A DNA stretch of 54,573 bases, counting the filler, from Sluysia triapertura (Eukaryota), in NCBI GenBank assembly GCA_046118255.1. It is 4 parts of 4 records of this genome, joined end to end, with 100 filler letters (N's around TTAATTAATTAA, not from the genome) between each part and the next. Parts side by side here need not be neighbours in the genome. Positions count along the whole stretch, not along the records: positions 1 to 13,813 come from JBJNIA010018077.1; 3 more parts are not named here. One strand, 5' to 3'. The notes below the pieces were generated by a model. That model saw only the letters and a list, made by a program, of their open reading frames with translations, was not told the DNA's origin and did no database searches. Position numbers and translations under genes: made by a program. This document shows positions 5,888 through 47,790 of this stretch, piece after piece. Numbering within the stretch: position 1 is the stretch's first letter; the number at the start of each line of letters is the position of its first letter.

Positions 5888-7370
5888 CAGTGGTAGCCAC
5901 ATTATTAGACTAAAACAGAAAAAATATGTTTTCTTTGGATTTCTTAATATTTGCTCATTATTGAATGTGTAACATAAGAAATATTATATATAATACACGA
6001 AATATTATGTATAATATACAAAATTCGATATATAATATATCTATGTTCTAAATTGCCTATATAATTAGATTATAATAAAAATATGATATGTGATAAGTTG
6101 TTTTAATTTGAAAAACTAAAAGTATCTGCACAATTTGTGGTTTTATCTTGATATTAATGACATCATTAGCCTTGACATATTGATTAGAATATTTTGTTAA
6201 GTGAGTTTTTTTTATATATCGATTCGAAAAAAAGGCCAAAATTGAAGTTTATCTTAAAAAACTGAAATGACGCAAGAAGATATTGCCAAAAATGTATGAG
6301 TTTGTCAGAAATCCATGTCAAGGGTGATGTATCAATTAAGTGGGAAAATGCAGCAGAAAGAAGAAAACATTAGTGAGAAATGATGGATATTTGGTGAAAC
6401 TTTCTACGATGAATCGTAAAGCCACCAGTATGATTTTGCAGAAGCAGTTAGAGACTTGCGGAATTCACGTTAATGCTAGAACAGCCAGAAGGAGACTTGT
6501 AGACCCAGAAGAAAGCCTAAGTTGGCGCCAGTAAAAAGGTTTGCAAGGCTAAACAACACCAGCATTTAACAGAGGATGACTGGAATCAAGTGAGTTTTAG
6601 TACGAGTCGTCCTTTCGAGTATTGGATGAAAAGACCACCTTTGGAAGAAGGAGACCTGATGAGGAGTTTCACTCTGATTGTGTCATAGAAACTGTGAAAT
6701 GTCTAACAATGATAGTCTGGTCGGTTATCTCCATCCATGGTCATGGCAGGCTGTACAGGTTGATGGAACAATGAATCAACATCAATATATGAATGTTCTT
6801 GAAACAAGGATTTTTCCTCAACTTCAGGATAAGTCCAAGAACGGTGATCTCCAATTTATGCAGGATGGTGTACCATGTTACATGGTGAAATCAGTGCGCA
6901 AGGTCATGGTGTTAATCTGGAAACTCTCCAGACATGAATCCCATAGAAAATCTGTGGAAGATTGTTTCAAGAAGAGTTTCTTCCCATAAACCAACTACCA
7001 GGACAGAACTTATTGAAACCCTGAAAAAGTCTAGGAATCATGATGACGATATCAAAGACTTGTACCCCAGGATAACAAAAGAGGTCAAACAAAGTACTGA
7101 TGCAACAGTTTGTACATTTTTTTATTAGGAGTAAATTGTGTTATCATTCTACATTAATAAAACTTCTATATGTTTTGGATCTCAGTATTTTTATCTCTTA
7201 TTTTACTTTCACCATAATTGTTTTGTAGAAAGTAGTTATTTTCCAATATTTTCATTTTTCCATGACATCTGTCGGTAAATGGCATGCATTTATACACTTT
7301 GGATTAATAGTTTCATAATATCTTGAATTTTATCACAATAATGGTTTGTCTAATAATTTGGTCACCACTG
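5888..7370 (+). mobile_element. Tc1-family DNA transposon, degenerate full-length copy
   Basis: 23-bp TIRs (CAGTGGTAGCCACATTATTAGAC vs rc CAGTGGTGACCAAATTATTAGAC, 20/23), TA on the right flank. Broken transposase: HTH-like 6340-6534 (HVNARTARRRL), WNQVSFS..ES, FMQDGVPCY, SPDMNPIENLW. Confidence 0.93.
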
Positions 7371-7801
7371 TACCTTATGAATTTTTCTTTTAATAATTTA
7401 TTGATAATATATCAGTCTAAATACTCTCTCTTCAAAACACAATAAAGATTCAGTAAAAATGTTTAAAATGCAAAATGTCAAGAAGTTAAAACACATTATT
7501 AGTAACAATTAATTTGTACAAATTATACGTTAATAGAATAAAAACAACTAAATTATATTTTTTATACTCTTTTTTCACTATGACTTATTCTTGTTCTATT
7601 AATACTATTTATTCTCACTCCATTGTCAATTACTTTTTCAAAATAAAATTTAACTGGATACTATACCAGTACTATTCATTTTCATTCTATTGTTGATTAT
7701 TTTTTTGGAACGATACATTAAATAGCTTTATTTTTAGTTTAGAATTATTTTTAATTAAATTAAATTTATATTTATTATTTTTTGATAATTTATCTCAATT
7801 G

Positions 7802-7977
7802 TTAACCCTTCCACTGCTCTACACGTATATATTTATAAAAATAATGTGTTTCATAAGCTCCAAGCGAGTATTTTTGCATCATGTTTTAAAATGGTTTCCT
7901 CCTCAACACAAATAAACTCGCAACCACTAAAATATATGTGCGCAGCGGTCGCAAAATTTCAAACGTGTTAGGGTTAA
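7802..7977. mobile_element. Possible piggyBac-type MITE
   Basis: Bounded by TTAA-CCCT ... AGGG-TTAA. The TIR is poor beyond the first bases. Confidence 0.3.
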
Positions 7978-8131
7978 AAGGTTAATTTAATTATGTTCAC
8001 TACATTAACTTCGGTTTATGTTTTTTAGTTGTGATGTTTTTAGGTGTGATGTTTTCTGATAAGTAATTCGTACTTGATATACAAGATAGATACATACATA
8101 TCAAGATTGTAGACTTTACTTGAGTCATTTG

Positions 8132-9970
8132 CTAGTCTCCGTATATAAGCGGTATTTGATTATTTGTAGCGTATTCATAAATTGGAGGTGGAAGTACTGG
8201 CATACCTGGAGGAGGAGTGTAATTATTCCTATGTGGAACTGTATATGCGTCGTCGTCATTATTATTGTTATGTGGCAAACATGGGTATCGACAACTATTC
8301 GAAACAAACATAATAATAGTCAATACCACTATAGCTAAAGCCATTACGAACAGTATTGCCGCCACAATTAATATCACTAATGCTGGATCATTTCGTAATA
8401 TTTCCAATATTGTTAAATGTTTTCTTGTTCCTTTAAATGGAAAATTCAAATATTTTGATGAGTGGCGGAATTTCACTATAATATGTCTATCTTCGACATA
8501 TAAAATATCTGAGCAAACCGTGACTGGATATCTCAATTCACTATTAATATAATTTTCGTATATGATCCACGAACTAAAATTAAGTCTGGCAGGTTTTAAA
8601 CATGCAAATTTGGCATGAATGTTTTGATTCAATATCTTAACTTTTACTTCATTGTTTCTATTATAGAATTCACAATATTCCGTTTTAAAAGATTGTTCGT
8701 GACATTGAACTATTGTAATTATCGTAATTAAAATCAAATGTATAAGATTTTTATTATTCGCAGGAGCCCGTATTTTCGTACCTATTTGAGATAAGTAGAG
8801 TATTGTCCAAAATATGTATAGTACCGCAAAAATTAGGAATATTGTAAAGAACTTGTAAGAGTGTCCCGTTGTACCTTCTGTAGTTGAATTATTTAAGTTA
8901 CTTATCGGTTTCTTAATTGTACCATAATCGGATAAGGTTGTCTGTATTTTCGTTGTTTCTTCATTTCTCAATTGATCTATTTGCTTAATAAATTTCCAGA
9001 TGTCTCGTGTATTTCTTTGAGTGTCGAAAGAAAAAGTTATTATCATTGGTCTATAACCGTAATGTAGACAATGTGGGATTCCGTTTAAACGATGTGGTTT
9101 CCCCACCAGTAAGGGTTTTAGGTAGATGCAATAGATTTCGAATTTATGTCGTAAAATCATTTTCTTAGAAATGAATTCGAACTTCCAATATTGATTGTAA
9201 ATATCGGTAATCATTATTTTCTGTTCCCTGCCATGATTTGTAGCTATATTCATATTTTTATATTCTTCGTCTGTTTCTGTTGCCATGACATTAGTTATAA
9301 GTGACAGAAGAATCACAATTAAGATAGAAAGCCAACAAATTATCTTTCCGAAACGATATTTATTAAAACAATTTCTTTTTCTTATACTAGTCATTATCAT
9401 TACTGTATTCTGAATATCTGAGTTGATTCCTGAATCCGAATTTTCCTCTGATTTAATTGCCGATGGTGATCCCCATGATACATCCGATAAATGAAGTGTA
9501 GAATCGACGATAACAGGTAATGGAAAATCTGGAATTTGTAATGGTGGATTCGACATAGGCATTTGATGTAAAGTTAATTCATCGCCAACTTGTGGAACTA
9601 ATAGTTGCGGTATAATCATATTTGAACCTGGTGGTATTTTTATAAATCTATATTTACTGTGAATAACCATATCTTCCAATTCATATGGGCCATTATCCCA
9701 ATCATTTACTAAATTTAGTACATATTGTACTAATACTTCTATATAGCATGATAGAGTTCCATTGATATTTATAGGTGTTTGATTTACATTATATGTTACC
9801 AGACTTGGTCTTTTTAAGAATATTGATTCCCAAGTAGTTAGAAAATTTTTATGAATGACAGTAATAGTAGTGCCGGTATCTACGATTGCTCTAACCCAGC
9901 GTCCGTTAAACCGCACATTTTGCATTATATGAGCTAAGTCATTTCCATGAGAATGCATCATAAATACCAC
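8132..9970 (-). CDS. 612-aa ORF: retropepsin-like aspartic protease fused to multi-segment membrane/secreted polyprotein (element accessory/env-like ORF)
   Basis: N-terminal VRFNGRWVRAIVDTGTTITVI. Hydrophobic segments KIICWLSILIVILLSLITNVMA, FFTIFLIFAVLYIFWTILYL, LIHLILITIITIVQC, ALVILIVAAILFVMALAIVVLTIIMFV. Pro-rich tail with PPIY. Confidence 0.85.
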   Translation of the reverse strand: MVFMMHSHGNDLAHIMQNVRFNGRWVRAIVDTGTTITVIHKNFLTTWESIFLKRPSLVTYNVNQTPININGTLSCYIEVLVQYVLNLVNDWDNGPYELEDMVIHSKYRFIKIPPGSNMIIPQLLVPQVGDELTLHQMPMSNPPLQIPDFPLPVIVDSTLHLSDVSWGSPSAIKSEENSDSGINSDIQNTVMIMTSIRKRNCFNKYRFGKIICWLSILIVILLSLITNVMATETDEEYKNMNIATNHGREQKIMITDIYNQYWKFEFISKKMILRHKFEIYCIYLKPLLVGKPHRLNGIPHCLHYGYRPMIITFSFDTQRNTRDIWKFIKQIDQLRNEETTKIQTTLSDYGTIKKPISNLNNSTTEGTTGHSYKFFTIFLIFAVLYIFWTILYLSQIGTKIRAPANNKNLIHLILITIITIVQCHEQSFKTEYCEFYNRNNEVKVKILNQNIHAKFACLKPARLNFSSWIIYENYINSELRYPVTVCSDILYVEDRHIIVKFRHSSKYLNFPFKGTRKHLTILEILRNDPALVILIVAAILFVMALAIVVLTIIMFVSNSCRYPCLPHNNNNDDDAYTVPHRNNYTPPPGMPVLPPPIYEYATNNQIPLIYGD

Positions 9971-9982
9971 TTGTTTATTCCT

Positions 9983-12900
9983 TAGTGCGTGAATTGAAGG
10001 CGGTTTATATTTCTTAAATTGTACTCCTCTTTTGGTGCCATTTTACATCTATTAACGTGTACTACGAATGTTTCGGAATTAACTTTGTTAGGATCTTTAA
10101 CACATTTGTATTGGTAACTTTTGTTATTAAATAAGGACCTTTAAAAGGTTTGTGTAACTGACCAGGTTTAGTTATTGTATAATATATTAATACTTCATCA
10201 CCTATTTTAAAAGTATGTTCCTTCGCTGTTTTATCGCATGCATCTTTATATATTTCTTGAGAGTATTTAATTTGAAGACCTGCGCGTTTCCATGCATATT
10301 GTAATTGTTTTCTCATTGTTGTCACATATTCCGAAATCTCCACGTACTGTGAAGTTGGAGGAACCCACTCCAAATCTACTGGCATGTTAGAATGTCTGCC
10401 GTACATTAAATAGAATGGAGTAAAATTAGTTGCCGGGTGTACAGAACTTCTACATGCAAAAAGGCATGGTGCTATATATAAGTCCCAGTCAGTCTGTCTA
10501 TCATTTACGTAAGATTGAATCATATTAATAAGAGTTCTGTTAAAACTTTCCACTAATCCGTCAGTTTGTGGATGGTAAGGAGATGTATAAATTCGAAGAA
10601 AATTGAAGATTTTAGCCACTGATTTAATCACATTGCTAGCATAGTTAGTTCTATGATCTGTTAATAATTTTCTAGGAGTTTCATATTTGTAAATGATCTT
10701 TTCTACCAATATTTGTGCCACCGTTTCGGTCTTTTGATTAGGCATCGGGTATGCCTCTGGCTATTTAGTCAGGTAATCCGCAAATACATTTATATACTTA
10801 TTACCATTAATAGTCTCTGGAAGAGGACTCGTAATGTCCATAGCGGTAAATTCTATTGGTGATAATGGTACTAGCATAGGTTTTAGTGGTACTTTAGTCT
10901 TTTGTCCAGTATTCTTTCGTCGGCAACATATCGAACAATCTTTACAGCATTTCCTTATATCCGATTCCATATTTTCCCAGTAGTATTTACTTTTAATTCT
11001 TGATAATGTTTTCCTCGTTGATAAGTGACCTCCTAATTGTCCGTCATGACATTGTATTAAAATAGGTATAATTAATGATTCCGGTATAATAGTTTTCCAT
11101 TCGTCTTTATTATTTTTAAATCTTAATATTCCATCCATAATAGCTAGTCTTTTTGATTGTAATTCGTTTAAAGTTCCTTTAGCTAACCCATCTAGAATAG
11201 CCGAAATCTCTTTATCTTCTCTCTGATGTTTAACAATGTCTTCAGAGTTCTGTAATTTTCCCGATACTGACATAATTTGTATCAAATTGATACTTCCCTT
11301 ATCATCTACATTCGTCAATCTAGACATACAATCGGCTCCGTTATTTAAGCTACCTGGCTTATAAACAATTTCCAAGTTAAATTCTGATAGTTTGTTGAAC
11401 CATCGGTTGAGTCTACTAACTTCGTCTCGGTGATTATATAAATATGTTAAAGGTTTGTAATCAGTGTACAAATATACTTTCTGTCCTAGCAAGTAATGTC
11501 TGAACAATTTACATGCATACACAATTGCTAGGCATTCTCTTTCGACTGTTGAATAATTCATTTCTGCTTTATTAAGTCTTCTACTGGCGTATGCTATAAC
11601 TGCTTCACGATTATTTTTATCCTTTTGACCTAAAATTGCACCGATAGAATAGTTACTAGCATCCGTAGTTTATTAACATCCGGAAATATTAATATTGGTG
11701 CTGTAGTTAGATGTTCTTTTAGTTCCTTAAATGCCTTTGCCTGTTCTTCGGTCCATTTAAATTCTACATCCTTTTTTGTAAGTTTTCTAAGAGGTTGTGC
11801 AATTTTCGCAAAATTTTTTACAAATCTTCTATAATAATTAGCCAAACCTAGAAAACTCTGAACCTTTTTAACGTTATCAGGTTGAGGAAACTTAATTACC
11901 TTTTCAATATTTCTTGGATTTGGTTTGATACCATCTTTAGATACTATGTGTCCTAAGAACTCGACTTTTTCTTCTGCCCATACACATTTTGTAGGTTTTA
12001 TTTTAAGTCTTGCAACTTCTAGTCTTTTGAGTTTTAAAATCTTTTGAAAATATTATGATGTCATCTATATATACCATAACATTCTTGCATCCTGATAATA
12101 CAAAATTCATACAACGCTGGAAAGTTGCTGGTGCGTCGGTTAAATCAAAAAGCATTTTTTCGCACTCATATAACTCATTTCCGCACGTAAACGCTGTTTT
12201 ATGTTTATCTTTTTCTGCTATTTCAATTTGCCAATATCCACTTTGTAAATCTAAACTTGTAAAATATGTAGCGTTTCCTAATTTATCCAACATCTCATCT
12301 ATTAGTGGCAGTGGGAACACATCTTTTCGTGTTATTTTATTCAATTCTCTAAAATCTATACAGAATCGCATCGTGCCATTCTTCTTTTTAACTAGTAATA
12401 CTGGTGATGAAAAAGGAGAGAAACTCGGTCTTATAACTGCGGCTTTCTTCATAGTGTCAATTTGATCTTGCATTTCCTTTTGATTGCATATAGGGATTCT
12501 ATAAGATTTTCTTCGAACTTATAAGGTTATCTTCTGTTAATGGTATTTCATGTTTTATGATTAATGAATCTCCAATATCATATTTATTTTTTGAAATTGC
12601 TCTTGGATATCGATATATAACTTCGTATAGTTGTTCTTTTTGTTTTTTAGTTAGATTTATGTTGTTAATTTGAATTTCTCCGTAATCCTCCTCTTGTATG
12701 TCGTGTTGTAGTTTTATTGTATTATTTTTTTAATCTGTCACCACGTTAACATGTGTTGGTATTTTATAATTAACAATTCTTCCTAATTTAGTTCCTATGA
12801 ATAACCATTTATTATCATTTGTATAATTTATAATTCGAACAGGTATCTTCCCTTCGCAATTATTACAGATCGAATCTGCAATACCTACATCCAATTTCTT

Positions 12901-13425
12901 TTGGTTAGTCTCTGAAGCTATAAACATAATTCGGCCAGTTAATGAACTATTTGTTTTTGCTGGCATTATATATTCGGTTCTACGCAATAACCATAATGGT
13001 TCATCAACATAAACATCATCATCATCATCGATAGTTCTGTTTGAATGACTATCCATCAATTTAACACTATTAAAATCCAGTATTACTTCTTTTAGTTGTG
13101 ACAGTATATCCATTCCCAATATCATGTCTTCTGGACATTTTTTCATTACTCTCAATTTTACGTCGACTTTATTTTGCCCTATTTCGCATACGGCTTTCAT
13201 TACTCCAACAATGTGTATGGCATCTCCGGTGACTCCTGATAAATGTGAAAAATGATTTGCTACATTTCCTTGTTCCTCTTCTGTTAATTGATTTTCATTG
13301 ATTAATGATGACACTGCCCCTGTATCTACTAGTGCCAAAATGGTTCTTCCATTAATTTTAACGTTAGCCATTGGTCTCTTGGAATTGTTATAATTATTAT
13401 TTGCACATATTATCATATAAACCAC
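9983..13425 (-). pseudogene. pol: Gypsy pol (protease, reverse transcriptase, RNase H, integrase), disrupted
   Basis: ORF pieces 12730-13425 (PR), 12003-12473 (RT), 11630-11845, 10761-11561 (RH, IN zinc finger), 10062-10745 (IN core). In-frame stops at ~12730 and ~10761; frameshifts or deletions near 12520, 12030, 11665 and 10100. Confidence 0.95.
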
Positions 13426-13471
13426 ATTTGGTATCGGTGTCGTTGGAGGATTTGGATAAATTTTATTATCC

Positions 13472-13813
13472 TTATCTTTGATTATCCTTATGTATATCCT
13501 TTTGTGATTTTCTAAGATTTTCCTTTAACTCTTCAATTTCTTCAATTTCATCATTTTGAATTGTCTGTAATGCTACATTTTCATTTTCTATTCTCGTTCT
13601 TTCTTTTCTTAACGCATTTATTTGTGAGTTAGCGTGATGATGTAACAAATATTTCGCCAAAAATGGAAAACAACCTTTTATCAATTTCCAAGTAAAACCT
13701 GAAATCTTATAAATTCCTACAACAGATAAAACTTGGGATATTATTAACGCTATTACTTTAATAATTATGTAAATACCAATTAATCCTGAGAAAGCTTGAC
13801 CTAAAATTAGAAA
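13472..13813 (-). CDS. C-terminal fragment (TM anchor + cytoplasmic tail) of a putative viral-type envelope glycoprotein, chuvirus G / gB-like
   Basis: Frame is open from the gap edge: FLILGQAFSGLIGIYIIIKVIALIISQVLSVVGIYKISGFTWKLIKGCFPFLAKYLLHHH, then a charged tail. The pattern resembles the C-terminus of chuvirus-type glycoproteins as recalled; not verified by search. Confidence 0.6.
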   Translation of the reverse strand, partial: FLILGQAFSGLIGIYIIIKVIALIISQVLSVVGIYKISGFTWKLIKGCFPFLAKYLLHHHANSQINALRKERTRIENENVALQTIQNDEIEEIEELKENLRKSQKDIHKDNQR

Positions 13814-13913
13814 NNNNNNNNNNNNNNNNNNNNNNNNNNNNNNNNNNNNNNNNNNNNTTAATTAATTAANNNNNNNNNNNNNNNNNNNNNNNNNNNNNNN
13901 NNNNNNNNNNNNN
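13814..13913. other. Assembly gap linker
   Basis: 44 N + TTAATTAATTAA + 44 N. Confidence 0.99.
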
Positions 13914-25574: not shown

Positions 25575-25692
25575 TGTTGGGATAAAAGACTGTAATAAAA
25601 TAAAAAATTGTTAGACTGGGCTGATAGCTCGAACTGCGCAGCGAGAGGTCCCGGGTTTGATCCCCGGTCAGTCCACTTTATGAAGTATAACA
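25575..25692 (+). mobile_element. tRNA-core short element, copy 1 (internally deleted)
   Basis: TGTTGGG..TAACA termini, 4-bp TSD TATG, tRNA-like GGGCTGATAGCTC..CCGGGTTTGATCCCCGGTCAGTCCA. Confidence 0.85.
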
Positions 25693-25717
25693 TATGGTTT
25701 ACCCGAGTTCATGCAAT

Positions 25718-25876
25718 TGTTAGACCATTATAAAGTGGTCTGACCTGTGATCAAACCCGGGACCTCTCGCTGCGCCGTTCGATGCTTTACCCACTGAGCT
25801 ATCAGCCCCGTCTAACAATTTTAATTTATTATAGTGAATAATACCATCATGGCACTTTAGGCCTTTTACCCCAACA
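25718..25876 (-). mobile_element. tRNA-core short element, copy 2
   Basis: TGTT..AACA termini, 4-bp TSD CAAT, 73-nt tRNA-like core at 25736-25808 with A-box TAGCTCAGTGG and B-box-like GGTTTGATC. Confidence 0.88.
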
Positions 25877-26688: not shown

Positions 26689-26799
26689 TAATAATAATAA
26701 TAATATATTAATTTATATTGCCCTCATATCTACCGCGAAAGTACTCAAAAGCGCTTAAGGTAAATCATTCACCATAATATTTCTGAAACAGAAAGAACT
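26689..26799 (-). mobile_element. L2-clade LINE 3' end
   Basis: rc reads AAGCGCTTTTGAGTAC..GATATGAGGGCAATATAAAT followed by a (TAT)n tail. 67 nt are identical to 43449-43515. Confidence 0.75.
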
Positions 26800-26899
26800 N
26801 NNNNNNNNNNNNNNNNNNNNNNNNNNNNNNNNNNNNNNNNNNNTTAATTAATTAANNNNNNNNNNNNNNNNNNNNNNNNNNNNNNNNNNNNNNNNNNNN
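26800..26899. other. Assembly gap linker
   Basis: 44 N + TTAATTAATTAA + 44 N. Confidence 0.99.
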
Positions 26900-33800: not shown

Positions 33801-34204
33801 AAGATCATAGTTATAATAATACGTATTAATCGTAATTTAATATATTCATTTTTTTAATTACATGTATTTTTATATTTATTGATTATATAATAAGTTATTA
33901 AACTTCGTTTTTGCCGTCCTTTTAAAAAATTAAGCTTTTTGTACATGTGTTTTAATTCATCATTTTGTGTAATATTCAAAATTGTAATTAACCTAAATAA
34001 AATACATTTTCCTTGATTTATAAATCTTGATTTATTATAAAAAGATTCATTTTTTTAATAACATGTACTTTTATATCTATTGCATATAAAATGTGTTAAT
34101 AAAAAAATTTTTTTATTAACTTCATTTTCGCCATCCTTTTAAAGTCTCTATATATCAATTAAAATTAAGTTTTTTTGTGCCTTTTTCATTTATAATGCAT
34201 TGTA

Positions 34205-37200
34205 ATGGCCGATTCTAAGTATAGTCCACGCAGTAAGCGTTCAAAACGTTCATATACCAATGATAGAACCAAACGAAGGTCCGATGATTCATCAAATTAT
34301 TCTGATGATAGATCGCACAGAAAGTCTAAGAAGAATCATTACAATGAAAGTGATTCACGGTCATATACACCAGATTCGTCAAGAAATTCCTCACAGTCAT
34401 CACGCTTTAGTTCGTATTCTGCCCAAGATTCAAAAAAGAAAAGTCAAAAAAGATCTTACAAAAGGTCTCGTCGATCTCGCTCTTGGTCAAAGCGATCTTC
34501 TAGTGGTAGCAGTAGTAGTAGCAGAAGCAGTAGTAGGTCATATTTAGAAAAAAAGAGAATAACTCGACCTAGAATAAAAAAGCAGGTTTGGAATAACAAA
34601 GTGTACATAGTTGGAGAAGGTATGAAGGAAAACTCTTTTCATTTTTGTGATTCATGTTCACTTCCTATATATATATATATATTTATTGTCGATTAGTTCC
34701 TTGTAAACACGTGTTTTGTATGAATTGTGGTACAAAATATCAGAATAAAAAGTGTCCCAGATGCGAGAAACAGGTCACGATGACAGAAGCATGTCCGTAT
34801 CACACAATTTTTATGTGCTATGAAGGTGGAAGTTCTCATAGCACTCAGGGTTGTCGTCGCACTTATTTTTCTCAGCGTGATCTCAACTCGCATATAAATC
34901 ATAGACATAAAAAATCATTGCCTGGTATTAGCGCTATTTGCGCAACTAGTGCATCAACAGCTGCTCCCACAGGTTCATGTCCTACAATTACAGCTCCTAT
35001 TGTATCTGTGTCAGGTACTATGAAAGCTCCACATGCTTCTTTAGGTATGCCAGTTATTAGTGGTGCTGTTGGAGGAATTCCTGTTTCTGCAGTTGCTGCA
35101 GTTTTTAATTTACAAGCAGTAGCAGGTTTACCATCAAATCAATTTTCGAATGCCGCAGTGCCGCCTGGTGCGTCTACTCCATCTATTGTCGGTCCAAATC
35201 CATTACACAACAGCAGTCAATCGTCAAATGCGTTAATGCAATCAATGACTAATTTATTTCATACTATTACGAGAAATCAACAGTCTCATGCACCTTACAC
35301 AAACCCAGTCAATATCAATACAACTGCTAAGACAAATATAAACACAGGAACAAATTTAGGACAAATTACACCTCGACTAACGGCCCACCAAACAATTCTC
35401 CTGTAAACACTAGTAGACCACCACCACAAGCACAGACTCTTAATCCATTATCTTTACTTCAGTGTGCAAATAATCCACAGAATGCATTACCTGGTTTACT
35501 TAATCAAGTAAATATTTAATTATATTAAAAATTATTGAAACAAGGTTTACTCTTATTTATTGCGGCAAGATGAGAGTTGTATTTTTATGGGAATATTTTA
35601 TATTTAATGTAGTTCGGTTTATCATATTTTATGAACAATCATATTTTTATATACACAATGTTTGTATCTACTATAGAAAATACATAGAAATGAACACTAA
35701 GAACGAATCAAACCAATAAATTTATTTTATTCTACTTCATTTAGAATTTATATCATTTTGAACCTTTACTTACTAATTCACCAATACAGTAAATTAGTGA
35801 ATTATTGTATTCAGCCATTTTAGCTGAGAATTTCTGTAGCATTTCAAGATTTTTAATATCGTTTAGAATCGCTTTAGTTAAGAATTAGATTCAGAAAAAA
35901 ACGGTTTTAATCGATAGTAATTTTAATTTAAAACACATGACATGTAATTTTAACATCTCATAACTTTTAATTATATTATTAATATCTGATTATATTTTTA
36001 TAGTTTTAATACATAAACTTACATCCAATAACTTAACTTTACAAATACGTAAGTTATACGCTATAATTCAACTTATAATCGAGTTTTTTGACAAGGATGA
36101 AATTTAATTTCGATAAATTTATCTCTACGAACATCAAAAGCTATGAGAAATATTAACAAAGCATTTGACAAAAATAAGCAAACGTTAGAACCCTTAAGCG
36201 ACAAGTTAACGATGACAATATAAGTTTTCAAAATGAGTGCCGAAACTCATAGGAATCTATTATGTACTTGAAGGAGTTATTTGTCTTGGATCCTTGGAAA
36301 AGCCAAATTTTGATGATTTTCTACATATAATTAATCAATATTAATCATCGCTCATCGATTTGTGATATTCCTTGCTTCTATATTTTGGATCATGTATTAT
36401 AAAGTATTTCAAAGGCTTCAAAAGCCCGAAACATTTACTGTACGATACTCAACAGTTTGTGTTATATTATAACCTTAAATCACAACAATGTGCATAAAGA
36501 GATATCTATCAAGTGGCCATCATTAGTTAAATAATAATGCTAAACTGAATATTTCAAGTTAACCATTATGGTAGTGAATCAACTTCAATGTGAATCATTT
36601 TTTCATTTTTCGTACTTCAAACTCGGTACCATCTAATTACCACTTTTCGAAGAAGTGCTGAATCAGTTTAGTCAAAACGGAGTGCTCGATCTGTTAAGTA
36701 TGTCTAAAGTTGAAATAAATGAAATTCTACGTAAAGTTTAGTAATGCAGTGACGCATTTGGTTCTTATTTTGATTAAATAAAATCAATTTTGAGTAGCTA
36801 TTAACTTAATTTTGTTATATAAAAATATATACGATTACTAAATTTTTTGCGCATTAAATTTTATGCATTAGGTTTTAAAGATTGATGCAATACTAAGCGA
36901 AATTTTTACATTAAATTATTACTATTTAACTTAGTAAGATATTTTAAATTTTTGATCTGATTGTATTTAATAGCATGAAATACTGAAAAAGGAAATGTAT
37001 TAAAAATTATAAGCCAAATTAAATTAAATGTTAAAAAGATTCTAGAATGTTACGAAAACTTCTTGATAAATATACCTTGATTTGTTTGTTCGTTTTTTTT
37101 AAAGGTTAGTATTGTATAGAAGTACACTACAAATTTAATAAAATTAATAATTGCAATAAATATTAATACTTTAATTTATTATGAATATTATGTAAATTAT

Positions 37201-42096: not shown

Positions 42097-42252
42097 TGTT
42101 AGACTTCATAAAATGGACTAATGGAGGATCGAATCTGGGACCTCTCGCTGCGCAGTTCGGTGCTCTACATTTGAGCTATCAGCCCCGTCTAACAATTTTA
42201 TATTTCTATAGTCTATTATACTACATGGTACTTTTAGACCTGTATCCCAACA
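42097..42252 (-). mobile_element. tRNA-core short element, copy 3
   Basis: TGTTAGAC..CCCAACA on the + strand, 4-bp TSD ATAT, homologous to 25718-25876. Confidence 0.88.
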
Positions 42253-43348: not shown

Positions 43349-43448
43349 NNNNNNNNNNNNNNNNNNNNNNNNNNNNNNNNNNNNNNNNNNNNTTAATTAA
43401 TTAANNNNNNNNNNNNNNNNNNNNNNNNNNNNNNNNNNNNNNNNNNNN
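43349..43448. other. Assembly gap linker
   Basis: 44 N + TTAATTAATTAA + 44 N. Confidence 0.99.
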
Positions 43449-43795
43449 CCGCGAAAGTACTCAAAAGCGCTTAAGGTAAATCATTCACCATAATATTTCT
43501 GAAACAGAAAGAACTTTGCTTTTTCCTTAAATATTTCATAATCTTCTAGCAATTTGACATTATCTGGTAACTGGTTGTATATTTTTGAGACATAACAGTA
43601 TACAACCTATCACCTAGCTTGTTATGACTGTTAATTTTATATAGATTATTATTAAGTCTCAATGAAATATTCATCTTCATTTCCAATATTCGTATTATTT
43701 CCAAAAGATATTGAGGACTTCCGTGATGTAAGCAATTGTAAATTATTGTCATAATTTTAAATTCTATTCTTGCTTTTATTGGCAACCAATAAAAT
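43449..43795 (-). mobile_element. L2-clade LINE, 5'-truncated (ORF2 C-terminus and 3' UTR)
   Basis: WLPIKARIEFKIMTIIYNCLHHGSPQYL..GDR is the typical L2/CR1-group post-RT motif. Confidence 0.8.
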
Positions 43796-46559: not shown

Positions 46560-47790
46560 GGTTAATGCTTATTATTTTTCTCGAGTTGAGGTTAAAATCA
46601 GGATTAAATTTTAATTATATCTATCTTTACAAATTATACTATTAGGTTTTATTAAAATTTTTTGCATTTGTAAATTTAATCCAATTGTTAGATTTTCTTT
46701 ATACAAGAGCTGAAAATAAAAACAAAATTTTATTTATTAGAAATTTTATTATTGATATTTCGCTCCTACTCATGAGTCTTCTTGGTGTTTCACCATCTAA
46801 TAAAAGAAATAATAATTGATAACACAAAGGATATAAAAGTAAAAATTATTTACCTTAATGTTGCAGTCCATTAAAATATTGTCGGACGAAGTAGTATAGG
46901 TAACTACAATGCTCTTTAGTAATTTTGCAATTCTTTGTAAATGACTATTACAACCCGCTTCATCTTCTTTACTAAGCGTCAATTCGTAAACAGAATGAGC
47001 GTAGCGACAGTATATTCCATTCATCAAACTGGACACAGGGCAGTTATACGAGCAATTTTATGATTATTGAACGTGTAATATTTATGTTCGTTATCATTAA
47101 GTGAATAGAGATTATTATTATAATTTGTGTTCACTCCATAAACCTTAGACTTATCTTCATTACATTTATAAATATTACTATTATCATTACTAAAATCGCA
47201 TATATCAAATTTATAATCATAAAATTTGTAAAGACGTATTATTTTTATAAAAATCAAAAATATCAATTTATGGATATTGTCTTTGTAGCCGTAAAACCGA
47301 TGAGCATGTTCTTTATTGTTGTTAACTCCGTCATCAACACCTTTTTTCTTCTTAGCTTGAGTAACATCATCTCCAACACTGTTATCTTTGTCATTATTAG
47401 TTTTATAATTTTCGTCTTCAACATTGTTTACTTCGCCACCAGCATTGTTAGTTTGGAAATCATCGACTCTACTGTTGTTAATCACGTTATATATATCTTC
47501 ATCATTATATACTTGAAAGTTTTCATAATTAACATCATTAACTTTATTTTGATCACCTTTAGCATTATTAACTTGGACATTATCATCTTTATTATTGTTA
47601 ATTACATTATACTTATCTTCATACTTTTATACTTGATAGTTTTGATATTTAACATCATTAACTGTATTCTGATCATCTTTAGCATTATTAAGTGACATCG
47701 TTTTTATTATAACCACCGGGATCAGTGTCTTCTCTTGATTCATTTGCAATCACTAAATCCGAATAACCTGTGGCTTTGTCAGACAGCATT
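46560..47790 (-). pseudogene. Decayed ORF with 40-aa Asn/Asp-rich tandem repeats and a SWIM-like zinc-finger remnant (possibly MULE-related)
   Basis: 120-bp period (AGCATTATTA ends at 47690 and 47570; AGCATTGTTA at 47450). NCSYNCPVSSLMNGIYCRYAHSV resembles CxC..CxH SWIM. Stops and frameshifts present. Confidence 0.45.

Follow-up and report, generated by a model that had tools for sequence, protein, structure and literature searches.

A candidate accessory membrane cassette following Pol in a decayed GAG-ENV-POL type Ty3/gypsy element of Sluysia triapertura

A contig of Sluysia triapertura (GenBank assembly GCA_046118255.1) carries, next to the remains of a retrotransposon, a reading frame in which two small units follow one another, each with a signal-like segment, an ectodomain and a transmembrane (TM) anchor. 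This raises the question of whether the units belong to the element, whether they are made as one membrane protein or two, and what they might contribute beside an envelope protein (Env). The window analysed here is a stretch of 54,573 nucleotides in which linkers at 13814-13913, 26800-26899 and 43349-43448 (44 N, a 12-base palindrome and 44 N) join four contigs; it is AT-rich (GC 19-37% per kb across the window), and the coordinates below count along it. A first-pass annotation had described 8132..9400 as a two-glycoprotein cassette processed by signal peptidase and carrying a PPxY tail. All the features that it quoted are present, on the minus strand and in a single frame (ORF map and Kyte-Doolittle scan), and the cassette is real, but the stretch so delimited holds just aa 188-609, which are the final 422 codons of a 609-codon ORF, and the reading omitted both an upstream protease-like domain and the context of a single Gag-Env-Pol polyprotein.

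The 609-codon frame and the element that carries it

The frame of the ORF is open from 10042, giving 636 codons without a stop (chance 3e-23 at local composition), and the ORF at 8132..9961 has an ATG of its own, from which aa are numbered. The features of the element and of the ORF are as follows.

13472..13813 (-): C-terminal TM region and tail of a chuvirus/gB-type (class III) Env, by Pfam PF24664
12499..13524 (-): protease 1 and Pol linker, by Pfam RVP (E 5.3e-12) and ORF map
11630..12518 (-): reverse transcriptase in two frames, by Pfam RVT_1 (E 2.5e-22) and tblastn with relatives
9982..11669 (-): RNase H, H2C2 and integrase, by Pfam RT_RNaseH (E 4e-18), Integrase_H2C2 (E 3e-19) and rve (E 1e-3)
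8132..9961 (-): 609-codon ORF with protease-like domain, linker, two signal-ectodomain-TM units and tail
9611..9925 (-): second aspartic-protease-like domain (PR2), the N-terminal part of the 609-codon ORF, with DTG at 9872-9880
9281..9388 (-): putative internal signal 1, with basic n-region, 16-aa h-region and V-M-A before the putative cut, from hydropathy and charges
8852..9280 (-): ectodomain 1 (aa 228-370), a body of ~110 aa with 2 Cys plus an S/T-rich stalk
8789..8851 (-): TM anchor 1 (aa 371-391), from hydropathy and a single-sequence AlphaFold model
8702..8788 (-): cytosolic basic loop (aa 392-405) and putative internal signal 2 (aa 406-420), from hydropathy and charges
8384..8701 (-): ectodomain 2 (aa 421-526), with 3 Cys and sequon N461
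8303..8383 (-): TM anchor 2 (aa 527-553, 27 aa), from hydropathy and the single-sequence AlphaFold model
8135..8302 (-): P/Y-rich cytosolic tail (56 aa), with PPxY at 8177-8188 (PPIY, aa 592-595)

The Pol order of protease, reverse transcriptase, RNase H and integrase, established with Pfam, the ORF map and tblastn, is that of Ty3/gypsy elements (Metaviridae). Ahead of it lies the Env tail (112 codons before protease 1), which matches PF24664 (Monjiviricetes_fusion, E 1.7e-10) at profile positions 546-628 of 653 and is 52-58% identical over 71-75 aa to the Env of L008 and L012, two of the relatives described below; Env upstream of 13,813 is missing, the contig being joined there to the linker 13814-13913. 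Since the PF24664 match precedes protease 1, the element is Env-Pol in layout and the cassette is not its fusogen, and the first-pass view of the two units as accessory rather than fusogenic is borne out by this separate class III Env upstream of Pol. The element is not intact: from 13810 to 9982 its coding sequence is interrupted by eight stops or frame changes. A frame change at the Env junction and an in-frame stop at 12730-12732 were found in the protease 1 region, and a stop at 10761-10763 and a frame change near 10100 break the RNase H-integrase region. The integrase tail carries the YxLR motif of the clade and ends at the stop at 9982 in a frame that differs from that of the cassette ORF, so the fusion of the ORF to Pol is deduced from the relatives. 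No long direct repeat was found at the element in the window, from which the 5' part beyond 13814 is absent. Judged by domain content and order, the element is a decayed Ty3/gypsy of the GAG-ENV-POL errantivirus type, with an HSV/gB-type Env upstream of Pol.

PR2, at the start of the ORF, has IVDTG at aa 26-30 and matches Pfam gag-asp_proteas at E 6e-4, below the cut-off. It aligns with protease 1 (48% over 33 aa, E 4e-7) and with the post-integrase protease of L003 (31% over 74 aa, E 3e-5). The DTG and the flap region align; the second G-x-D motif is out of register, unlike that in PR2 of L003, L006 and L009, and for this reason the activity of PR2 is doubtful.

Downstream of PR2, four hydrophobic segments with cores of 16, 21, 15 and 27 aa, in this order, were detected in the ORF by a Kyte-Doolittle scan, and all four are drawn as helices in a single-sequence AlphaFold model of the ORF (mean pLDDT 42, ~30 in both ectodomains). 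A basic stretch (aa 192-206) precedes segment 1, with 6 K/R and no D/E before the segment and 1 K/R and 4 D/E after it; the 14-aa loop between segments 2 and 3 has 3 K/R and no D/E, and the charges flanking segment 4 are less clear (3 K/R and 2 D/E before, 1 and 0 after). This alternation of charge fits a cytosol/lumen/cytosol/lumen topology at the first three segments. Signal peptidase sites carry small residues at -3 and -1 (the (-3,-1) rule). By inspection and charge count, both signal-like segments have n-, h- and c-regions with small residues at -3/-1, the putative cuts falling at NVMA/TETD (A227/T228) and, after V-Q-C, at VQC/HEQ (C420/H421). From h-region length, charge pattern and the (-3,-1) rule we infer signal-peptide cleavage at both internal signals. 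Ectodomain 1 is 143 aa long with sequons N357 and N358 in its stalk, ectodomain 2 is 106 aa long, and a comparison of the two gave no detectable duplication (E 5.4). The tail had been thought to end at PPIYEY; 12 further residues follow.

The element is a high-copy family. In two public sequencing runs, from two organisms, 17,854 contigs (X1) and 981 contigs (X2) match it, mostly at less than 95% likeness, and contigs 80-95% alike cover 30 of 30 bins of 7300-13810 in both runs, depth being no measure of copy number. Ten of 15 variants in the ORF are synonymous, where 21-29% would be expected (P 2e-4 to 3e-3), and none creates a stop, the 15 sites being drawn from the best-supported 40 of ~1,820 variant rows and not a random sample; within 8132-9400, five of the seven listed variant sites are synonymous. 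Among sites at which 90% or more of the depth disagrees with the window, 4 of 8 are synonymous in the ORF against 6 of 19 in Pol and the Env tail (Fisher P 0.41), so that coding constraint is seen at the level of the family and not for the window copy. The first-pass annotation had looked to conservation among copies for support, and contig coverage and the synonymous excess provide it, the cassette being a constrained part of a multicopy family.

Other sequences of the window were recorded alongside. A short element with TTAA-CCCT and AGGG-TTAA ends and high contig depth lies just 3' of the ORF (7802-7981), and we take it to be like a piggyBac-type MITE. A decayed Tc1/mariner transposase remnant is present at 6340-7128 (+) (HTH_Tnp_Tc3_2 E 4e-4, DDE_3 E 6e-4) and a host gene resembling the E3 ligase Hakai, in exon-like pieces, at 34196-35519 (+) (zf_Hakai E 2e-14, and RING). 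A 67-base exact repeat abuts two linkers (26733-26799 and 43449-43515), and a dispersed, GC-richer repeat found in both orientations (25629-25844 and 42097-42221) has a tRNA-like look and is possibly a SINE; ARAGORN found no tRNA in it. A 141-codon ORF at 47270-47695 (+) contains a 120-base tandem duplication and has no Pfam match.

Relatives and the slot after the integrase

A search with the RNase H-integrase region returned 159 proteins, of which 120 were listed; the first five, at 47-51% identity, stand apart from the rest. Among the matches listed, 3 of 115 integrase-matching proteins (P0001, P0004 and P0005) have an extension of more than 200 aa with a hydrophobic segment, and all three are within the top five; the 151-aa extension of another clade member, P0003, lacks any hydrophobic segment. 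An integrase motif common to the top five, and present in 0 of 117 other proteins, was used to retrieve 18 loci. Gypsy Pol was recognized in 16 of these, 14 of the 16 coming from just two metagenome assemblies, and L001 and L018, which have no Pol match, were excluded; L002 and L011 stop short of the integrase C-terminus, and 14 informative loci remain. Two loci, L016 and L017, are contigs of this eukaryotic element inside two bacterial genome bins (one titled Turicibacter sp.) and are therefore probably binning contaminants.

An in-frame signal-like segment follows the integrase in 12 of the 14 informative loci, and the full series of signal, ectodomain, TM and tail in nine. A protease lies between integrase and signal in three (L003, L006 and L009), as in the window, and stops interrupt the extension in L004 and L015. 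Single ORFs in L008 (3426 aa), L010 (3184 aa) and L012 (3703 aa) hold full Env, Pol and cassette; the Env (E 1e-83 to 5e-94) is full in each of the three relatives whose DNA reaches far enough 5', and Gag zinc knuckles are present in L010 and L012. L008 and P0005 have a further signal-domain-TM unit ahead of protease 1, between cytosolic domains. In an RNase H-integrase tree of 30 rows, built without published elements, a clade of 15 rows (support 98/96) includes L008, L010 and L012 and has the window as its deepest branch (0.93). By these predicted layouts, a signal-ectodomain-TM unit after the integrase is a clade-wide slot. The two-unit cassette put forward in the first-pass annotation is present in the window, whereas relatives usually carry one multi-domain unit, often of fibronectin type III (FN3) domains; two tandem units after the integrase occur in none of the 14 informative loci and are seen only in the window lineage.

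The slot is filled in the relatives by at least three kinds of ectodomain, namely a repeated domain with conserved Cys (20 domains cut from nine elements), a second repeated family in L004, L007, L010, L013 and L015, and a short Cys-rich domain in L006. The first kind was modelled for L012 from a 13-row alignment (pLDDT 86.5). Its best structural matches are FN3 domains (Z 9.4, rmsd 2.9 over 82 residues), and its Foldseek list is dominated by FN3, with no E below 0.001. On this model, the ectodomain of the relative is predicted to fold as FN3, with only 6-19% identity to the FN3 domains of cell-surface receptors and matrix proteins that share the fold. The likeness belongs to the relatives' domains. 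A profile of the relatives' FN3 domains, which recovers 16 of 20 held-out domains and misses four, gives the two window ectodomains scores that 368 and 134 of 1000 shuffles reach (glocal z 0.4-1.0), and the window sits on a long branch. With a second profile from the relatives, 66 and 9 of 500 shuffles score as high, which is not significant over four tests, and likenesses of the window ectodomains to the relatives' domains that were noticed by eye failed the shuffle tests. In wider searches, the ORF had 0 matches in a full phmmer search of 1.84 billion representatives and none in word-indexed searches, a metagenome scan gave 590 pattern matches and 0 confirmed, scans of viral contigs found no relatives, and the best match among PDB sequences had E 0.5. 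For the cassette, Pfam returned only TM-composition matches; the best ESM Atlas score, 0.82, is a lead only, with no usable match there for ectodomain 2.

The PPxY of the tail is not conserved across the clade, being present in 2 of 13 relatives' tails (L005 and L006); most relatives' tails are P/Y-rich and four are shorter than 20 aa. A PPxY also arises in 22% of 20,000 shuffles of the P/Y-rich window tail. On both counts the budding or late-domain reading offered earlier is weak, and the motif is at most a lineage-specific aid to trafficking or egress.

Additional domains were seen in several relatives. Ankyrin repeats lie between PR2 and the signal in L003 and L009 (Pfam Ank_2, E 1e-10 and 2e-11), and the stretch from Env to reverse transcriptase holds two or three protease-like domains at L008:3600-6130 and L012:6000-7100. 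Weak ubiquitin-like and UBX matches, below the cut-off (E 0.018 and 0.006), fall between Gag and Env at L012 aa 848-903 and L010 aa 610-642. In eight relatives the polyprotein is followed downstream by one or two ORFs for DEDD/RNase T-like exonucleases, with Pfam support in 5 of 10 ORFs scanned and several others linked by blastp; none was found downstream in the window. In L010 and L013 the exonuclease ORF follows the polyprotein stop in the same frame, a possible case of read-through. The sites are as follows.

L003:1148-4251, exonuclease ORF site
L006:1113-2627, exonuclease ORF site
L008:10617-12104, exonuclease ORF site
L009:183-3242, exonuclease ORF site
L010:161-1981, exonuclease ORF site
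L012:12085-13470, exonuclease ORF site
L013:2316-4442, exonuclease ORF site
L014:3712-5556, exonuclease ORF site

Proposed processing and the alternatives

The ORF very probably encodes an accessory membrane cassette belonging to the element, and this cassette is probably cut into two proteins. In the mechanism proposed here, the polyprotein would be threaded repeatedly through the ER membrane while Pol and PR2 remain cytosolic. Signal 1 would take ectodomain 1 into the lumen, with TM1 stopping transfer, and signal 2 would take ectodomain 2 across, with TM2 as its anchor. Signal peptidase would free Env and the C-terminal units, and the proteases of the element would free the cytosolic enzymes. 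In the window lineage this would yield a pair of small glycosylated membrane proteins, of which the first would retain the loop and the remnant of signal 2 and only the second would bear the PPxY tail. The remnant of signal 1 would tether integrase and PR2 to the membrane of Env, and the Env tail would hold the other end of Pol; such tethering could be a route to co-packaging Pol without a Gag-Pol fusion, Env separating Pol from Gag, and PR2 may have released the integrase. The ectodomains would most likely serve as partners of Env in attachment, adhesion or tropism, because relatives exchange FN3 domains in the slot while Pol and Env are conserved. We propose this attachment or adhesion role tentatively, at somewhat less than even confidence, and rank it ahead of host-cell modulation through the tail. 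On balance, we favour a cassette of accessory surface proteins that would be released by signal peptidase from an exchangeable slot and would act beside Env in attachment or host-cell modulation.

The predicted topology would be identical with or without cleavage, and the same ORF could give a single uncleaved, or once-cleaved, multi-pass membrane protein with two luminal loops, acting as a scaffold, channel or junction-like protein. This would agree with the loop of just 14 aa between segments 2 and 3 and with the four helices of the single-sequence model, weak as that model is at a mean pLDDT of 42. It agrees less well with segments 1 and 3, whose cores are short (16 and 15 aa, against 21 and 27 aa for segments 2 and 4) and have small residues at -1/-3, or with the relatives, in which one signal-like segment and one TM surround the FN3 domains in a type I layout, and no four-TM family of Pfam (innexin, tetraspanin, claudin) was matched at E up to 10; a multi-pass protein is, in our estimate, rather improbable. 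Far less credible still are small fusogens. The available text of 10.1101/2025.03.14.642691 reports fusogens among the small membrane proteins of LTR elements and characterizes the sORF2/FAST type by an ORF of 60-210 aa, one TM, a myristoylated ectodomain of 10-50 aa and a polybasic patch after the TM. Identity with this type was rejected for both units: the ectodomains are 143 and 106 aa long and have T and H as their first residues, the 15 aa after TM2 contain one K/R, and a class III Env is already present in the element.

Cleaved accessory proteins could also act on the host cell and not in entry, as receptor-like decoys or adaptors whose P/Y-rich tail recruits Nedd4-family ligases, with egress, receptor down-regulation or superinfection exclusion as the outcome. 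The PPxY shared by the window, L005 and L006, the P/Y-rich character of most tails and the other host-facing cargo of the relatives (ankyrin repeats and DEDD-type exonuclease ORFs) point in this direction, and rapid exchange of ectodomains also fits a host arms race, but PPxY is absent from 11 of the 13 relatives' tails, the four shortest tails leave under 20 aa, and the ectodomains are the larger investment. We regard such a host-directed role as unlikely, though it is the strongest of the alternatives. Very unlikely, in our view, is co-option by the host, in which the ORF of the window copy would have been kept after the rest of the element decayed. The ORF has its own ATG, and 6 to 8 breaks fall in the 3.5-3.8 kb of Env tail and Pol against 0 in the 1.9 kb cassette frame (P 0.02-0.04), a deficit that is subject to ascertainment because the ORF was picked for being open; moreover, the window-specific sites compared above do not set the ORF apart from Pol (4 of 8 against 6 of 19), and the ORF is part of a high-copy family.

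Enveloped gypsy elements are usually viewed as Gag-Pol-Env with a single surface protein. If the cassette, which we continue to read as accessory proteins released by signal peptidase, occupies a conserved slot for extra surface proteins, these elements would separate fusion from attachment or host modulation. Herpesviruses split fusion from attachment between gB and its partners. The slot would also give a testable answer to the question of Pol packaging in elements whose Env lies between Gag and Pol. A broader and more speculative proposal is that of an animal, probably flatworm, retrotransposon clade with a multi-glycoprotein entry apparatus, in which a class III fusogen would be joined by one or more signal-released receptor-like surface proteins (FN3 and other folds) that are encoded after the integrase in one polyprotein and exchanged between lineages as tropism modules, and membrane tethers at its two ends would take the place of a Gag-Pol fusion in co-packaging Pol.

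Comparison with known systems

The nematode NERVs of Sacco et al. 2022 (J Gen Virol) reportedly have a continuous gag-env-pro-pol ORF with an RNA-virus-like glycoprotein, an arrangement like that of the present element and its relatives. Their extra ORFs are said to encode a small hypothetical protein or a Upf1-like helicase and, unlike the window, no post-integrase glycoprotein cassette.

Bdelloid LTR elements have captured small TM-containing and DEDD-exonuclease ORF3s 3' of pol, according to the available text of PMC5408684; those ORF3s are separate and replace env, whereas in the relatives the cassette continues the Pol frame and exists alongside Env. In Atlas virus (Belpaoviridae), the polyprotein ends after the integrase in a tandem GN-GC (PMC9094657, available text), and two tandem membrane glycoproteins after the integrase are thus common to Atlas virus and the window. 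Atlas virus differs in being Bel/Pao and in having as its sole Env a class II fusogen, the 498-aa GC (same source), whereas the units of the window are of 143 and 106 aa and are additional to a class III Env. A phlebovirus-like GN/GC Env was rejected as an identity for the cassette, the second unit having 106 aa, 3 Cys and no Pfam match against the ~500 aa of a Cys-rich class II GC.

The element class itself is already known. GAG-ENV-POL errantiviruses with HSV/gB-type Env have been reported from Nematoda, Bryozoa and Platyhelminthes (Chary and Hayashi, eLife 2026, PMC13524379), and in these, as described in the available text, Ty3/gypsy Pol is preceded by a class III Env as in the window. An Env motif common to L008 and L012 has four matches in the supplementary alignment of that paper, and all four are Schmidtea mediterranea elements; those nearest by motif are Smed_errantivirus_1, 2, 3 and 5, with Env rows that resemble the relatives' Env by eye. 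This suggests, by eye only, that the clade is or adjoins this planarian group. In the available parts of the paper, no post-integrase membrane cassette or second protease was found described, the words 'fibronectin', 'accessory' and 'exonuclease' being absent from the main text and 'fibronectin' from the supplements; the elements may well contain the cassette unannotated. Full-text literature searches, with most subscription papers and Repbase entries outside their scope, turned up no description of a signal-ectodomain-TM cassette after the integrase of gypsy elements, and the cassette thus appears to be undescribed. Related elements reach up to 215 copies in a laboratory planarian (PMC13524379, available text), and these copies make the cassette idea testable in a model animal.
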